Source: a virus (taxonomy: Duplodnaviria; Heunggongvirae; Uroviricota; Caudoviricetes). Taken from it: a DNA stretch of 33,563 nt. The translations under genes and the position numbers were made by a program. The stretch is taken from IMG/VR virus record IMGVR_UViG_2541047945_000006, one strand, 5' to 3'. Shown here piece after piece: positions 17,362 to 33,563 of this stretch. The first letter of the stretch is position 1. Every line of letters starts with the position of its first letter. Under the pieces are notes generated by a model that did no database searches, was not told the origin of the DNA, and saw nothing but the letters and a program-made list of their open reading frames with translations.

Positions 17362-17607
17362 ATGAAATCAATGGACAAAATCTCAACTGGCATTGCCTAC
17401 GGAACATCTGCTGGTAGTGCGGGATACTGGTTTTTGCAGTGGTTGGATCAGGTCAGTCCGTCACAGTGGGCTGCGATTGGAGTGCTTGGAAGCCTTGTGT
17501 TGGGTTTTCTCACTTATCTGACAAATCTGTATTTCAAAATCAGAGAAGACAGACGAAAGGCTGCGAGTGAACCGCCCCGGGTTTCCTGGAGAGTATTTTA
17601 TCTGTGA
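17362..17607 (+). CDS. S: Phage-21-type pinholin S21 with IS-altered C-terminus
   Basis: Dual-start MKSMDKI and SAR-type TM region match S21 from memory; the last codons (ARGE-stop in intact S21) are replaced by a read-through into the IS end ([13 protein letters not shown]). Confidence 0.8.
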
Positions 17608-17609
17608 AC

Positions 17610-18500
17610 TCAGGCTGCCAGATCATCGTTTCCGATGGAAGCATAATAAGCTTTTTCTGCTTCTGCCGGAGGAGTATGGCCCAGCCTTTCCAGCAATCGT
17701 CGATTGTTATACCAGTCCACCCACGTGAGTGTGGCCAGTTCCACTTCTGCACGGTTTTTCCAGCTCTTACGGTGTATTACCTCCGCTTTGTAAAGACCAT
17801 TGATGCTCTCCGCCATCGCGTTGTCATACGAGTCGCCTGTACTTCCTGTTGATGCCAGTAATCCGGCTTCCTTAAGCCGCTGTGTGTAGGCCAGCGATAC
17901 ATACTGAGAACCTTTATCACTGTGATGGACCGTGCCGGACGGTCGACGGGCCCATAACGCCTGCTCCAGTGCATCCAGCACGAATGTCGTCTCCATGGAC
18001 GATGAGACCCGCCACCCCACAATGTATCCGGCAAACACATCAATGATGAACGCCACATAGACGAAGCCCTGCCATGTGCTGACGTAAGTAAAATCAGCCA
18101 CCCACAGCTGGTCAGGTCGTTCTGCCACGAACTGACGGTTTACGCGGTCGCCTGCGGCAACGGCTTTCCGGCTGATGGTCGTACGGACCTTTTTACCCCG
18201 GAGAACACCGGCAAGTCCCATAACCGCCATGAGACGTGCCACAGTGCATCTGGCCACTCTGATACCTTCCCGTAACAACTGACGCCAGACTTTACGCACA
18301 CCGTATACCTTGTGATTTTCATCGTATACGCGCTGTATCTCTTTCTTCAGCCAGTCATCGCGCTGCGCACGGGCACTGCGTTTATCCGGATGATGTCGCT
18401 GTTGCTGACAGTGGTAATACGTTGACGGGGCAATATGCAGTTCGCTGCATAGCGGTCCGACCCCGTACTGCTCACGCAGCTTATCCAGCAGTGGCATCAT
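17610..18500 (-). CDS. IS3-family transposase OrfB (DDE integrase-like catalytic domain)
   Basis: 296-aa ORF of typical IS3-family OrfB character; overlaps orfA as expected for -1 frameshift fusion. Confidence 0.85.
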
Positions 18501-18823
18501 TTTTTCCAGAGGCGGTCGAACTCCGCCTTCGCAAAATAAGCGGAAGCCTGGCGAAGGATATCGTTACTGCGGCGCAGTTCACGATTTTCACGCTCCAGCT
18601 CTTTCAGACGCTGACGTTCAGCGGTGGTGAGCCCTCCATCACCGCCCCCGGTATCCCGCTCATGCTGGCGAACCCAGACACGCAGAGTCTCCGGCGTACA
18701 GCCAATCTTTGGAGCAATGGAACAAATTGTCGCCCATTGTGAGTCATATTCGCCCTGACTTTCCAGAACCATACGGACTGCCCGTTGACGGACTTCAGGG
18801 GAAAAACGAGTATTTTTAGTCAT
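18497..18823 (-). CDS. IS3-family transposase OrfA (HTH plus leucine zipper)
   Basis: 108-aa ORF ([57 protein letters not shown]...) that I recall as IS629/IS1203-type OrfA. Confidence 0.85.
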
Positions 18824-18889
18824 CCTGTTTACCTCTTTCTCAGGAAGTTTAGTCTCCAGGATTCCCGGGGCGGTTCAGAGAGGTGAATA

Positions 18890-19387
18890 ATGCCTCCATC
18901 ATTACGAAAAGCCGTTGCTGCTGCTATTGGTGGCGGGGCTATTGCCATAGCATCTGTGTTAATCACTGGCCCAAGTGGTAACGATGGTCTGGAAGGTGTG
19001 AGACATAATCCTTACAAAGACATAGTTGGTGTATGGACTGTATGTTACGGGCATACAGGAAAAGACATCATTCCCGGTAAAACGTATACCGAAGCAGAAT
19101 GCAAAGCCCTCCTGAATAAAGACCTTGCCACGGTCGCCAGACAAATTAACCCGTACATCAAAGTCGATATACCGGAAACAACGCGCGGCGCTCTTTACTC
19201 GTTCGTTTACAACGTGGGTGCAGGCAATTTCAGAACATCGACGCTTCTTCGCAAAATCAACCAGGGTGATATCAAAGGTGCGTGTGACCAGCTACGTCGC
19301 TGGACATACGCTGGCGGTAAGCAATGGAAAGGGCTGATGACCCGTCGTGATATTGAGCGTGAAGTCTGTTTGTGGGGGCAGCAATGA
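18890..19387 (+). CDS. R: SAR endolysin (phage 21 R21-like lysozyme)
   Basis: N-terminal Gly/Ala-rich signal-anchor-release domain ([18 protein letters not shown]) followed by a lysozyme domain; begins 10 nt after the IS end. Confidence 0.85.
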
Positions 19388-19821
19388 GCAGGTTAACCGC
19401 GATTATCTCCGCTCTGATTATCAGCATCATCGTCTGCCTGTCATGGGCTGTTAATCATTACCGTGATAACGCCATCGCCTACAAAGAGCAGCGCGATAAG
19501 GCCGCATCCACAATCGCTGACATGCAGAAGCGTCAACGTGATGTAGCAGAACTTGACGCCAGATACACAAAGGAGCTTGCTGATGCTAACGCGACTATCG
19601 AAAGTCTCCGTGCTGATGTTTCTGCTGGTCGTAAGCGCCTGCAAGTCGCCGCCACCTGTGCAAAGTCAACGACCGGAGCCAGCAGCATGGGCGATGGAGA
19701 AAGCCCAAGACTTACAGCAGATGCTGAACTCAATTATTACCGTCTACGAAGTGGAATCGACAGGATAACCGCGCAGGTTAACTACCTGCAGGAGTACATC
19801 AGGACGCAATGCCTTCGATGA
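19384..19821 (+). CDS. Rz: Rz i-spanin
   Basis: Start at internal ATG ([31 protein letters not shown]...) overlapping the R stop; resembles lambda Rz from memory. Confidence 0.8.
19583..19768 (+). CDS. Rz1: Rz1 o-spanin (lipoprotein) embedded in Rz in the +1 frame
   Basis: 61-aa ORF with lipobox LVVSAC and a proline-rich mature region, nested inside Rz. Confidence 0.65.
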
Positions 19822-19995
19822 TAGCGATAATTTTACTCATCATCCTTCACATCTGGCTCTGTAGACAGGGTGGTGATCACTTCTGGAGTAAATCCAGATT
19901 AAACATCTCATTGCTGATGCTTGATATTGAGCATCTGGCGCGCAGTAAGGGGCTGCGTTGAGATAAGAGCCAGTTCATTACAAATACCAGGATTT

Positions 19996-20023
19996 AGCCT
20001 CGCATTCGCGGGGCTTTTTTATA
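19996..20023 (+). terminator. Putative intrinsic terminator after the lysis cassette
   Basis: AGCCTCGC-ATTC-GCGGGGCT hairpin (one G-T pair) followed by TTTTTTAT. Confidence 0.5.
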
Positions 20024-20164
20024 TCTGAATTTCACAGCGCATCTCACGCGCATATTAACGAGAGCCTTTCAGTAAGCGAGCCTGAGAAATGCCGTTATAG
20101 GTGGCGACCTCTCTCGGGCGGCTTTTCTGTGAGACAGGCTCACTTTCTAAAAGGTAAAGACGCT

Positions 20165-20662
20165 ATGAAAGCAATCACGCTTTTTAATACACCGATTCGT
20201 GTTGATGAATCAGGAATGATCTGCCTCACTGATATGTGGAAAGCCAGTGGTAAAAGTGAATCTGAATCTCCGTACCACTACCTGCGAAACAAGCAGACCA
20301 AAGAGTTCTTAGCCGAGCTGGAGAAAAACCACGAATCTGTGGTTTTTACTGAGCGCGGTGTACACGGTGGAACATATGGCGGGAAGTTTGTTGCTTATGA
20401 TTATGCAGCATGGCTAAACCCCGGGTTCAAGTACGCGGCCTATAAAGTCCTCGATGACTACTTCACCGGAGAACTTCAGCATCGCAACAGCTTAAGTGCG
20501 CAGCTCAACATGAAATGTCATGAGTTTGACCAGAAGAAAGACATGGCGAGCTTCTGCGGACAAGGGCTGGCGGCATGGCGCTATACGAAGCCAGTGTTGG
20601 TCGCTGAGATTAACTCCCTGGCTAACCAGCTGCAGATTACGATCCCCGGGCTTCCGGGATGA
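20165..20662 (+). CDS. KilA-N domain protein (moron between lysis and packaging genes)
   Basis: Start at internal ATG (MKAITLFN...); KilA-N/APSES-like features (...GTYGGKFVAYDYAAWLNPGFKYAAYKVL...). Confidence 0.6.
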   Translation: MKAITLFNTPIRVDESGMICLTDMWKASGKSESESPYHYLRNKQTKEFLAELEKNHESVVFTERGVHGGTYGGKFVAYDYAAWLNPGFKYAAYKVLDDYFTGELQHRNSLSAQLNMKCHEFDQKKDMASFCGQGLAAWRYTKPVLVAEINSLANQLQITIPGLPG

Positions 20663-20916
20663 GTGATCGTGTCATTGAATGCGCCTCCAGAGCGGGGCGC
20701 GACTTCTCAGAGTTCATGAAAGGCGAGAAGGGCATGATGGAAGCATTGGCCTCGGTGGATGAGTTTGGCGAGCAGCTGCGCCTCAACGGCTGTGTCAATC
20801 ATCACTTTGTTAGCTACATGATGCGGAACTCGATCATGCAGGCATTCATGGACATGGCAAAAGCCGAGAGGAAAGAAGAGCGCCGGCGTAAGCGAGCGGA
20901 AGCAAAAGCGAAGTAG
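20659..20916 (+). CDS. Hypothetical protein (85 aa) with Arg/Lys-rich C-terminus
   Basis: Translationally coupled to the KilA-N gene (ATGA overlap). Confidence 0.5.
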   Translation: MSDRVIECASRAGRDFSEFMKGEKGMMEALASVDEFGEQLRLNGCVNHHFVSYMMRNSIMQAFMDMAKAERKEERRRKRAEAKAK

Positions 20917-21196
20917 CCATTACAAAGCCCATTTACGGGTGGGCTTGATAATGAAACCGGAATTTATTCTGGGCCACCAGTTAACGGCAGTACCACGAAA
21001 CAACCCAAGCCAGTAAGCGGGGAAATAACACTGGCAGCCACTGAAAGATGAACCTCCAGCCTTATGGCAAAAAAGATTCTTTGTGGTGGCGGACTGATGG
21101 AAAGACATCGGTTATTGCAGAGGCCATTCAATGAGCGGTCTCGACAATGAGTAAAAGCACAATATGTGAGGCAGAAACGAATTGGTTATATTGAGT

Positions 21197-21340
21197 TTAG
21201 GATGGATTTGAGCCCATAGGGAGTGGGAACGTAACCCAGCCCCCGAGGTAGAAGAGAGCGACATCGACCATGGTGAGTTCTTCGGTATTCGAGGTTAAGC
21301 GTTTTACCGTATTCATGAATTTTTCTGAATATTTCCTCAT
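21197..21340 (-). CDS. Hypothetical small protein (47 aa) inside the IR-bracketed segment
   Basis: ATG at 21338-21340 preceded by AGGGGG SD; the C-terminal codons are encoded by the left inverted repeat; taken from the tail of track ORF 21197-21889. Confidence 0.3.
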   Translation of the reverse strand: MRKYSEKFMNTVKRLTSNTEELTMVDVALFYLGGWVTFPLPMGSNPS

Positions 21341-21475
21341 GGCAACCCCCTTGCTTTTGGCTATATCGCTAACAACTTTTACTGCTTTTGGTATCAGTGG
21401 ATAAAACAAAAGTCCTACTGCTGTAATGTTTTTCACCACTTGAACGATATCGCTTCCGGCACTCCCTATGGGCTC
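21210..21475. repeat. Pair of perfect 16-bp inverted repeats (GAGCCCATAGGGAGTG / CACTCCCTATGGGCTC) bracketing a 266-bp segment
   Basis: Exact reverse complements at 21210-21225 and 21460-21475, in the non-coding region upstream of the small terminase gene. Confidence 0.7.
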
Positions 21476-21512
21476 GTAGGGAGATAGTTTAACTAAATAA
21501 AGAGAATAAGCA

Positions 21513-22040
21513 ATGGCACTCACCGACAAACAAGAAATGTTCTGTCGCGAGTACCTCATCGATTTAAACGCCACGCAAGCGGCTATTCGGGCGGGGTACA
21601 GCGCAAAGACAGCTAACCGTACCGCATCCGAAAACCTGTCAAAACATGACATCAAGTTAAGAATCGCCGAACTGAAAGCGCAACGCAATGATCTTGTTGG
21701 TATTAACGCAGAATATGTACTTAATCGCCTTATTGAAATCGACCAGATGGATGTGCTCGACATTCTCCTGCAAAACGGCGAGTTAAAGCCAATTAAAGAC
21801 TGGCCTAAGGTATGGCGCACAACGCTATCAGGAATGGATGTCGTGGAGATGGTATCCGCAGATAGCGCCGCACTTCTGAAGAAAATCAAATGGCCTGATA
21901 AGGTTAAAAACCTCGAACTTCTTGGTAAGCATGTTTCTGTTCAGGCGTTTAAAGAACAAGCTTCTCACGAATTAACAGGCAAAGACGGCGGCGCAATTCA
22001 GATTGAAACATCACCGATGAGCACTCTATTTGGAAAATGA
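21513..22040 (+). CDS. Terminase small subunit
   Basis: 175-aa ORF immediately upstream of and overlapping the large terminase (ATGA); N-terminal HTH-like region (MALTDKQEMFCREYLIDLNATQAAIRAGYS). Confidence 0.85.
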   Translation: MALTDKQEMFCREYLIDLNATQAAIRAGYSAKTANRTASENLSKHDIKLRIAELKAQRNDLVGINAEYVLNRLIEIDQMDVLDILLQNGELKPIKDWPKVWRTTLSGMDVVEMVSADSAALLKKIKWPDKVKNLELLGKHVSVQAFKEQASHELTGKDGGAIQIETSPMSTLFGK

Positions 22041-23452
22041 CCTCGATTAATCCTATCTTTGAACCGTTCATTGAGGCGCATCGCTACAAAGTCGCCAAAG
22101 GCGGTCGAGGTAGCGGTAAATCATGGGCAATTGCGAGGCTGCTTGTTGAAGCGGCGCGCCGACAGCCTGTGCGTATTCTCTGCGCTCGTGAACTGCAAAA
22201 CAGTATCAGCGATTCGGTAATCCGGTTGCTTGAAGACACCATCGAGCGGGAAGGGTATTCGGCTGAGTTTGAAATTCAGCGTTCCATGATTCGTCATCTC
22301 GGAACGAATGCTGAATTCATGTTCTACGGCATCAAAAACAACCCGACGAAGATTAAATCGCTCGAAGGCATTGATATCTGCTGGGTGGAAGAAGCGGAAG
22401 CGGTAACGAAGGAATCATGGGATATCCTGATACCAACCATCCGTAAGCCGTTCTCTGAAATATGGGTGAGCTTTAACCCGAAGAACATACTCGACGATAC
22501 CTATCAGCGATTCGTTGTAAATCCTCCCGATGATATTTGCCTGCTGACGGTGAACTACACCGACAACCCGCACTTTCCTGAGGTTCTCCGTCTGGAGATG
22601 GAAGAGTGTAAACGCAGAAATCCGACACTGTATCGTCACATCTGGCTTGGTGAGCCAGTAAGCGCAAGTGATATGGCAATCATCAAACGTGAATGGCTTG
22701 AAGCAGCAACCGATGCGCACAAGAAACTCGGATGGAAAGCGAAAGGCGCTGTTGTCTCTGCGCATGACCCATCAGATACAGGGCCAGATGCTAAAGGTTA
22801 TGCATCGCGTCACGGTTCGGTGGTTAAGCGCATTGCCGAAGGTCTGCTGATGGACATCAACGAGGGTGCTGACTGGGCTACTTCGCTGGCGATTGAAGAC
22901 GGCGCTGACCATTACCTGTGGGATGGTGATGGTGTTGGTGCCGGGCTACGCAGACAGACAACGGAAGCGTTCTCCGGCAAGAAAATCACCGCCACGATGT
23001 TCAAGGGCAGCGAATCGCCATTCGATGAAGATGCACCGTATCAGGCCGGAGCATGGGCTGATGAAGTCGTACAGGGCGACAACGTTCGCACTATTGGCGA
23101 TGTGTTCCGCAATAAGCGAGCGCAATTCTATTACGCGCTGGCTGACAGGCTGTATCTGACATATCGGGCGGTTGTCCACGGTGAGTATGCAGACCCCGAC
23201 GACATGCTGAGTTTCGACAAAGAAGCGATAGGCGAGAAGATGCTGGAGAAGCTGTTTGCAGAACTGACGCAGATTCAGCGCAAATTCAATAATAACGGGA
23301 AGCTGGAGCTTATGACTAAGGTCGAAATGAAGCAGAAGCTCGGTATTCCATCTCCTAACCTGGCTGATGCGTTGATGATGTGTATGCATTGCCCGGAGTC
23401 GGCTGCGCAACCCGACTATTCCAGTTACTCAATTCCTTGTGGTGTAGGTTGA
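22037..23452 (+). CDS. Terminase large subunit (headful type, Sf6/PBSX family)
   Basis: Walker A KGGRGSGKS near the N-terminus and C-terminal nuclease region; from memory closely resembles the Sf6-type large terminase. Confidence 0.92.
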   Translation: MTSINPIFEPFIEAHRYKVAKGGRGSGKSWAIARLLVEAARRQPVRILCARELQNSISDSVIRLLEDTIEREGYSAEFEIQRSMIRHLGTNAEFMFYGIKNNPTKIKSLEGIDICWVEEAEAVTKESWDILIPTIRKPFSEIWVSFNPKNILDDTYQRFVVNPPDDICLLTVNYTDNPHFPEVLRLEMEECKRRNPTLYRHIWLGEPVSASDMAIIKREWLEAATDAHKKLGWKAKGAVVSAHDPSDTGPDAKGYASRHGSVVKRIAEGLLMDINEGADWATSLAIEDGADHYLWDGDGVGAGLRRQTTEAFSGKKITATMFKGSESPFDEDAPYQAGAWADEVVQGDNVRTIGDVFRNKRAQFYYALADRLYLTYRAVVHGEYADPDDMLSFDKEAIGEKMLEKLFAELTQIQRKFNNNGKLELMTKVEMKQKLGIPSPNLADALMMCMHCPESAAQPDYSSYSIPCGVG

Positions 23453-33329: not shown

Positions 33330-33563
33330 TGAACCGCCCCGGGTTTCCTGGAGAGTATTTTATCTGTGAACTCAGGCTGCCAGATCATCGTTTCCGATGG
33401 AAGCATAATAAGCTTTTTCTGCTTCTGCCGGAGGAGTATGGCCCAGCCTTTCCAGCAATCGTCGATTGTTATACCAGTCCACCCACGTGAGTGTGGCCAG
33501 TTCCACTTCTGCACGGTTTTTCCAGCTCTTACGGTGTATTACCTCCGCTTTGTAAAGACCATT
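33330..33563 (-). mobile_element. Second IS629-like copy, same orientation as the first, cut by the window edge
   Basis: Sequence 33330-33563 matches 17568-17801 along its whole length by eye, starting with the same terminal repeat TGAACCGCCCCGGGTTTCCTGGAGA. Confidence 0.85.
33372..33563 (-). CDS. IS3-family transposase OrfB, 3' portion only (partial at window edge)
   Basis: Placed by offset identity with orfB of the first IS copy (17610-18500). Confidence 0.7.
   Translation of the reverse strand, partial: NGLYKAEVIHRKSWKNRAEVELATLTWVDWYNNRRLLERLGHTPPAEAEKAYYASIGNDDLAA

Follow-up and report, generated by a model that had tools for sequence, protein, structure and literature searches.

A KilA-N gene pair in the post-lysis slot of lambdoid phages and the conserved leader predicted to sequester its ribosome-binding site

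The late operon of the P22-like (Lederbergvirus-type) Escherichia coli prophage held as IMG/VR record IMGVR_UViG_2541047945_000006, whose 33,563 nucleotides are referred to here as the window, reads on the + strand in the order class II holin, lysozyme, Rz, a 50-residue open reading frame (ORF), hkbK, hkbL, small terminase subunit (TerS), large terminase subunit (TerL) and portal. The subject of this analysis is the hkbK-hkbL pair and the leader that precedes it. Both genes are present on the + strand at the coordinates first assigned to them: the hkbK homologue at 20165-20662 (165 residues, ATG start) and the hkbL homologue at 20659-20916 (85 residues, ATG start), overlapping by four nucleotides (ATGA) such that hkbL starts on the hkbK stop. 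By sequence similarity the pair is already catalogued, as the hkbK/hkbL accessory genes of lambda-like (HK620-type lambdoid) phages, and in itself is routine; the new part is the covarying leader, which is absent from Rfam. The best explanation, which we hold with somewhat better than even confidence, is that HK620-type hkbK-hkbL form a Q-gated late cassette behind a leader that would sequester the Shine-Dalgarno (SD) sequence, and encode dispensable, dose-sensitive late regulators of a Rha-like kind.

The cassette opens with an intrinsic terminator that forms its 5' boundary (19996-20020, + strand), comprising an 8-bp stem with six G-C pairs, the loop ATTC and a T-run; a terminator scan places the hairpin itself at 19996-20015, followed by TTTTTTATATC. 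Beyond it lie P1, a small GC hairpin or inverted repeat of the form GCGC-N7-GCGC (20037-20051, + strand), and P2, a long imperfect hairpin of 92 nucleotides with 31 consensus pairs by RNAalifold and a covariance model (20064-20155, + strand), and then the hkbK ATG. The SD of hkbK, AAAGGU (20150-20155, + strand), falls within the bottom helix of P2, where it is predicted to pair with GCCUUU at 20064-20069. This succession of terminator, small GC inverted repeat, long hairpin and ATG is kept in every locus where a KilA-N gene is followed by hkbL, across all three KilA-N classes introduced below and in the copies that sit within tail modules. In the case of P1, 37/37 distinct upstream segments contained a perfect inverted repeat (4 bp or longer), as against 37% of shuffles. 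The variants TGTGC/GCACA and GCGCT/AGCGC were recovered in that test, and TGCGT/ACGCA, CGCTT/AAGCG and TTGCA/TGCAA were seen by eye; P1 may function at the RNA level, as a hairpin, or in the DNA, as an operator.

The evidence that P2 is a structured RNA is comparative. A plain MAFFT alignment of 12 diverse leaders, folded with RNAalifold, recovered the two main helices, with compensatory changes in 7/13 pairs. Ten A-type leaders gave the 31-pair RNAalifold consensus, and from their alignment the covariance model R1 was built, which matches the window at 20054-20165 (115.5 bits, the sole copy in the window) and to which other leader types also align. With 20 distinct rows aligned to R1, 97.0% of cells were paired, compared with 78.4% in shuffles (0/500 reach the observed value), and 25/31 P2 pairs had changed on both sides; as a control, sliding the partners by 1-3 columns left 40-55% of cells paired and 4-7 pairs changed on both sides. 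The bottom helix alone has both-side changes in 6/6 pairs and 94.7% of cells paired—for example, CCUUU/AAAGG in the window corresponds to CCUAC/GUAGG in two other leaders (L093 and L101). Across the leader alignment, 52 cells are G.U and one is A.C, a bias that argues for a sense-strand RNA and not a DNA palindrome. In the window the AGG of the SD has an unpaired probability of 0.004, its forced opening would cost 6.5 kcal/mol, and this closure was matched by 0/100 shuffles of the upstream leader sequence; the SD is closed likewise in the L093, L092, Stx1717 and L014 leader types. In essence, the leader is predicted to be a conserved, covarying helix that includes the SD.

An Rfam 15 search of 19300-21700 returned three chance-level matches only (E 0.2-1), far below gathering scores, and the leader is a probable new family of cis-regulatory RNA of a known general kind. 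No leader copy was found in the E. coli K-12 cryptic prophages DLP12 and Qin, so that the family may have escaped RNA catalogues based on K-12. Two alternative readings of the leader were tried and set aside. The inner hairpin and U-tract at 20091-20128 were considered as an attenuator or terminator, and rejected because the U-tract is not conserved, being missing from the HK97 and L089 types, and is paired with AGAA in the consensus. Similarly, GTG at 20129, which would give a 177-residue product as annotated for phi80 rha, was dropped as the hkbK start because leaders vary by single-nucleotide indels between this GTG and the ATG (e.g., in L096) and the stretch covaries as RNA. As a separate observation, an apical unpaired stretch of ~9 nucleotides (20110-20118 in the window) reads UCUCUCGGG in the window and CGCUCUUGG in the HK97 and L089 types; the latter resembles the NusB/S10-bound boxA motif CGCUCUUA, which could be chance.

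The genes that stand behind this leader are varied. The window leader is 100% identical over 128 nucleotides, up to the ATG, to the leader of phi80 rha, and the cargo found behind leader copies comprises Rha with or without an ORF11CD3 domain, KilA-N+P63C, P22_AR_N+ORF11CD3, HkbL-like+T5orf172 and HNH+AP2 proteins. For instance, copies precede Rha-type genes in Klebsiella, Hafnia, Pantoea and Stx2a phages, gp68 of epsilon34, a Providencia KilA-N+P63C gene and HNH endonuclease genes. A pattern scan of IMG/VR yielded at least 115 usable leader copies; the cargo among the matches listed (n=115) consists of 66 Rha types, 24 KilA-N, 17 HkbL-like+T5orf172 and 8 other. An Rz-like gene lies just upstream in 71/91 copies among the listed matches with at least 900 nucleotides of upstream sequence. 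The terminator travels with the leader: each of the leader types examined, those of the tail-module loci L005 and L092 among them, has a GC-rich hairpin and T-run at the corresponding position, and a T-run lies 120-210 nucleotides upstream of the ATG in 107/111 IMG/VR copies, among the matches listed with enough upstream sequence. These sequences show a leader that is independent of its cargo.

Several individual loci add detail. HNH endonuclease genes stand behind leader copies in L091 (2570-3229), L075 (19-638) and phage Dewey (H167); in L091, a full leader stands before the HNH gene and a leftover leader 3' arm after it, the latter still upstream of a KilA-N gene, an arrangement that looks like a homing event into the leader. 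Phage phi80 carries a second, diverged leader copy (L095 4112-4207, 44.6 bits) before PHI80_66, an N15 gp59-like gene near cos.

Mosaic junctions coincide with the leader edges: a megablast match to Stx phages covers 20160-20953, ending after the stem-loop that follows hkbL, and the match to phi80 ends at the ATG. Junctions this exact, and leader sequences that are often near-identical between phages, are consistent with a non-regulatory element, a terminator joined to a recombination "linker" that is kept by module exchange, with the pair as constitutive late cargo. We consider this very unlikely, since divergent leaders keep their pairing through the both-side changes tallied above, the excess of G.U over A.C is the signature of a sense-strand RNA, and the pairing takes in the SD.

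The preliminary description placed the terminator after Rz and regarded the two genes as a moron pair, possibly with a promoter of their own in 19996-20165. The terminator is real, but it follows the 50-residue ORF (19809-19961) and not Rz directly. A consensus scan of the + strand of 19996-20165 found no sigma-70 promoter, bearing in mind that such a scan cannot exclude one, and the region appears instead to be the conserved, structured RNA leader that would pair with the ribosome-binding site. By eye, a weak promoter-like TTCACA-16-TATTAA is present at 20032-20059, where it spans P1, but these hexamers are not conserved in other leader types, and on both grounds a sigma-70 promoter belonging to the pair is considered improbable. 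On the 3' side, no terminator stands directly downstream of the pair: the stem-loop at 20918-20953 (+ strand; -24.5 kcal/mol, z = -3.6) has no T-run. Nor does the base composition of the pair deviate from that of its neighbors, with a GC fraction of 0.508; the window as a whole stands at 0.482 and the lysis genes at 0.49-0.52. The strict definition of a moron, in the sense of Hendrix, fails on terminator and composition; what survives of the term is that the genes are separate from the lysis and packaging sets and occupy a variable slot.

A classical moron would have its own promoter, be expressed from the prophage and benefit the lysogen, e.g., through abortive infection or exclusion of the BstA kind. 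Lysogen-expressed genes such as bor are known in this slot, with lambda and DLP12 as examples, and the prophage defense protein BstA, reportedly expressed in the lysogen, has a KilA-N-like domain. HkbK also matches the candidate defense system PDC-S22 of PADLOC (E 6.8e-9), and the hexamers at 20032-20059 could be taken for a promoter. However, the PADLOC hit is at the level of the KilA-N domain only, so that membership of a defense system was rejected for the pair, and HkbK has 165 residues as against 307 in the two-domain BstA. The lack of a consensus promoter or of conserved hexamers, an opening made of a terminator and an SD-closing hairpin, the shared orientation with the late operon and the ordinary GC content all count further against a classical moron, which we judge unlikely.

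The pair is widespread. Window positions 19950-21149, which contain the leader and both genes, are 98.6% identical at the nucleotide level to HK620 hkbK/hkbL, and related DNA occurs in 228 phage records and in 2659/5426 complete E. coli genomes. Given this spread, and a confident AlphaFold model of HkbL (mean pLDDT, the predicted local distance difference test, of 92), hkbK and hkbL are not chance ORFs. RefSeq annotates them as "KilA-N domain-containing protein" and "hypothetical protein", and a paper on Salmonella prophage transcriptomes contained nothing specific on the post-lysis slot.

Behind the lysis genes, the pair is found beside four terminase systems: P22-type in HK620 (P22-like genes 3 and 2), HK97-type in HK97 and mEp235 (HNH plus TerS), lambda Nu1/A-type in PhiR49_1, and that of Stx phages in Stx2 phage 1717. 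In Klebsiella phage RAH1 and a Raoultella contig it lies within the tail gene cluster, and in phi80 the same post-lysis slot is occupied by rha. Since it accompanies four terminase systems and enters tail modules, the pair is an independent module rather than an accessory to packaging, which bears out the earlier assignment of both genes outside the lysis and packaging sets; no conserved packaging set holds them. The slot between lysis and packaging genes is also a known variable position, as the description of a cargo location had implied. A role as accessory genes working with terminase, to which the position of the pair immediately upstream of the small-terminase gene in the window could point, is contradicted by this distribution and, with ~600 nucleotides and a minus-strand ORF between pair and terS here, is extremely improbable.

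The assignment of the first gene to KilA-N holds up. By Pfam's own thresholds HkbK belongs to two families, KilA-N (PF04383; residues 7-101, 58.5 bits against a gathering cut-off of 23.8, E 6.6e-16) and ORF11CD3 (PF10549; residues 109-161, 50.5 bits against a cut-off of 25, E 2.4e-13). Among PHROGs, HkbK is assigned to PHROG 129, "transcriptional regulator", and its C-terminal part alone matches the Rha-like PHROG 518; many Rha proteins in the slot carry the same C-terminal ORF11CD3 domain. Phage_pRha (PF09669) was not matched by HkbK in Pfam, and a sequence search of the PDB gave no match for HkbK or HkbL. HkbK is not of the Rha, Ant or BstA families, and its tie to Rha consists of slot, leader and C-terminal domain. 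It is best described as a predicted DNA-binding protein of the domain-shuffled Bro/KilA-N/Rha network; the Bro domain-shuffling network is said to have been described by Iyer and colleagues in 2002.

A regulatory or anti-repressor-like role, as first proposed for HkbK, is plausible, with the qualification that no Ant or P22_AR domain was found in either protein. A specific form of this proposal is a late antirepressor, in which HkbK, together with HkbL, would inactivate CI-type repressors of the phage itself or of co-resident prophages. Bro-network proteins include P22 Ant and Gifsy AnrP; a P22_AR_N+ORF11CD3 protein stands behind a copy of the same leader; a Klebsiella homologue is annotated "antirepressor"; and HkbK has weak matches to anti-repressor PHROGs at E 3e-4 to 6e-4. 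Yet Pfam, even at E up to 1, detects no ANT, P22_AR_N or P22_AR_C domain in HkbK, the annotations were assigned by similarity, and Rha, the only slot occupant studied genetically, is described as affecting DNA synthesis and not repression. On balance, a late antirepressor is unlikely.

The second gene encodes a small protein of PHROG 875, a family of unknown function matched over its full length (E 3.2e-54). The reported basic C-terminus is evident: the last 19 residues of HkbL have a net charge of +5.8 and an isoelectric point (pI) of 11, and residues 1-66 are acidic (pI 5.2). In the AlphaFold model, helices span residues 3-20, 26-42 and 48-84, the last being long and basic, and a Foldseek search of the PDB returned generic helical bundles only, at E of at least 1.8. 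The family is narrow: it has 21 representatives among 1.84 billion proteins, and its 138 clusters at 90% identity come exclusively from Enterobacteriaceae and their near relatives. A zinc-binding role suggested by the invariant residues C8, C45, H48 and H49 was weakened because the epsilon34 gp68 homologue does not have C8, H48 or H49.

The association of hkbL with KilA-N genes is close: a KilA-N gene precedes hkbL in 93/93 loci where the upstream gene is readable, and this gene may belong to any of three unrelated classes: the KilA-N+ORF11CD3 class, the KilA-N+P63C class of HK97 and mEp235, or a KilA-N+P63C type of 251-260 residues. The KilA-N+P63C protein of mEp235 and HK97 is ~21% identical to HkbK, and HkbL is 96% identical between the window and mEp235. 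No hkbL-like gene was found after rha-type cargo when such genes were looked for. A fused version is provided by epsilon34 gp68 (L099 1934-2419), in which an N-terminal HkbL-like domain is joined to T5orf172/MUG113 (hhalign probability 94%, and Pfam), and the fusion suggests that HkbL is a stand-alone form of one more module of the Bro network, a domain-shuffled network named in PMC10111431. HkbL-like proteins with T5orf172/MUG113, which is GIY-YIG-like, stand directly behind the same leader in gp68 and in 17 IMG/VR loci among the matches listed. In two other IMG/VR loci (L130 and L205), ORFs of 57-59 residues unrelated to HkbL come after HkbK homologues of 55% identity and overlap them by the same 4 nucleotides, which suggests a variable "small partner" position behind HkbK homologues.

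Such coupling invites comparison with a toxin and its modulator, whereby HkbK would be a KilA-like growth inhibitor and the coupled HkbL would moderate or steer its action. Expression of P1 KilA kills the host, and the protein shares ~30% identity with HkbK residues 11-127; the ATGA overlap, the unrelated small ORFs in the same coupled position and the invariable KilA-N gene upstream of hkbL would all suit a toxin pair. Against it, neither protein matches a toxin-antitoxin family in PADLOC or Pfam, and many KilA-N genes of the slot have no small partner, so that a toxin with its modulator seems quite unlikely.

The Q-gated late cassette that we prefer would work as follows. With no promoter of its own, it would be transcribed during late lytic growth only, by Q-modified RNA polymerase reading through the terminator; given the place of the genes in the Q-dependent late operon, only antiterminated polymerase should pass the terminator. 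Thereafter, sequestration of the SD would limit translation of hkbK as long as the stem stays closed, candidate openers being RNase III cleavage or a trans-acting RNA, such as a small RNA (sRNA) acting with Hfq. Since the leader is constant while the cargo changes, the gene for the opener probably belongs to the host or to the core phage genome. Translational coupling to hkbK, through termination and reinitiation, would yield HkbL. Accordingly conceived, the leader probably keeps hkbK and hkbL nearly silent until late infection.

Once made, HkbK and HkbL would serve as late regulators working on DNA, dispensable and dose-sensitive, with a function comparable to that of Rha. For HkbK this is an argument by analogy, from the slot, leader and C-terminal domain that it has in common with Rha. 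A GenBank note on phi80 rha reads "DNA synthesis inhibition in IHF- hosts", and rha is reportedly, from work by Henthorn and Friedman in 1995, inhibitory in integration host factor (IHF) mutants and dispensable. A double lock would suit dose-sensitive cargo, because Rha is recorded as inhibiting DNA synthesis in IHF- hosts, P1 KilA kills its host and homing endonucleases cut DNA. Extended to all of its cargo, the cassette may be an undescribed, widespread cis-regulatory RNA of lambdoid phages that locks both transcription and translation irrespective of the genes behind it, a generalization that we put forward tentatively, leaning slightly against it.

Several observations weigh against the preferred reading. 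The R1 alignment was fitted to the structure and its sequences are related by descent, both of which inflate the pair counts. In the HK97, RAH1 and L019 leader types the SD has an unpaired probability of 0.32-0.46, no better than shuffles. A search of the window for a trans-acting complement to the leader arms matched the two arms themselves and nothing else, and the IHF site WATCAANNNNTTR, allowing up to one mismatch, was not found in 19960-20200. The promoter-like hexamers that span P1 belong here too, as does the finding that HkbL is not obligate, many KilA-N genes behind the same leader being without it. The names hkbK and hkbL were not mentioned in the literature searched. Finally, an IS3-family insertion farther up the late operon may have shut off expression of the entire region in the particular prophage studied here.

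That insertion (17568-18877) is located in the late operon, where the class II holin gene (17362-17607) has its 3' end. It carries two minus-strand ORFs (18497-18823 and 17610-18500) and is bounded by 41-nucleotide imperfect inverted repeats at 17568-17608 and 18837-18877. The prophage of E. coli MMC-J-0105, a 100% match to the window over the tested stretch, is otherwise identical and lacks the element at the same site. A second IS3-family copy runs from 33330 to beyond the window end (33330-33563). In the near-identical relative L002, genes for tRNA-Asn and tRNA-Thr lie between the Q gene and the holin gene (18452-18607).

The remaining neighbors are as follows. Upstream of the pair, lysozyme (18890-19387, + strand) is followed by Rz (19372-19821, + strand) and then by the hydrophobic 50-residue ORF, on the + strand between Rz and the terminator. 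The latter belongs to PHROG 11822 and is hypothetical in RefSeq; its counterpart in epsilon34 is gp67, which is recorded as similar to Sf6 gene 65. Downstream, the small terminase subunit (21513-22040, + strand; PHROG 51) precedes the large subunit (22037-23452, + strand). A minus-strand ORF of 108 residues (21197-21523; PHROG 36259), annotated in a RefSeq relative, sits in the ~600-nucleotide spacer and overlaps the start of the small-terminase gene by 11 nucleotides; beyond 21149 the spacer has no HK620 homology.

The wider significance lies in the slot as much as in the genes. With varied DNA-binding and nuclease genes behind one conserved leader, the lambdoid post-lysis slot would be a regulated cassette site and not a random site for cargo, and the HkbL fold, found fused to T5orf172, would be a further module for Bro domain shuffling. 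Should the lock be borne out, it would offer a testable handle on the silencing of toxic late accessory genes in temperate phages, and on what Rha-type proteins do; the long-known rha/IHF phenotype of phi80 and P22 might also trace back to it. A double lock would allow phages to carry and swap toxic Bro-network and homing-endonuclease genes safely.

Known systems place the cassette in context. The closest relatives of the pair are HK620 hkbK/hkbL themselves (NC_002730; HK620p38 and HK620p39), which occupy, in a P22-like phage, the position that the pair has in the window, with Rz on one side and the packaging genes on the other; HK620 differs downstream, where homology ends at window position 21149 and hkbM, hkbN and a different small terminase follow. 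The rha genes of phi80 and P22 (Phage_pRha family) come next: phi80 rha has the slot and leader of hkbK, and many Rha proteins of the slot share ORF11CD3, but the N-terminal domain of Rha is the Phage_pRha winged helix where HkbK has KilA-N, no hkbL-like gene follows phi80 rha, and the IHF-related phenotype is known for Rha only. P1 KilA, the founder of the KilA-N domain, resembles HkbK through its N-terminal part; its C-terminal part is different, and kilA lies in the P1 lytic replicon. For the leader, precedents of the general kind are the SD-closing leaders of rpoS, lambda N and adhE, which are opened by sRNAs or RNase III. Like the hkbK leader, these employ a long imperfect hairpin to pair the 5' leader with the ribosome-binding site, with no sequence relation between them.

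Two further systems bear on how a KilA-N or Bro-type gene might be deployed. BstA proteins are prophage-encoded defense proteins of 307 residues with a KilA-N-like N-terminal domain (Owen et al. 2021, PMC8585504). They have a distinct C-terminal domain, in contrast to HkbK with its ORF11CD3 domain, its place in the late operon and its position behind a terminator and a closed ribosome-binding site. In the Gifsy-1 isrK-orf45-anrP locus, an antirepressor-like gene is transcribed by terminator read-through, on an mRNA rendered translationally inactive by leader structure (Hershko-Shalev et al. 2016, PMC4825925). The Gifsy-1 genes stand immediately behind a Q-like gene and come with a promoter of their own, an upstream ORF and a trans-activating sRNA isoform, none of which was found here, and the isrK family of Rfam had no match in 19300-21700. 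With a Bro-type gene, terminator read-through and an inactive mRNA, isrK-orf45-anrP is nonetheless the closest working analogue of the hkbK leader.

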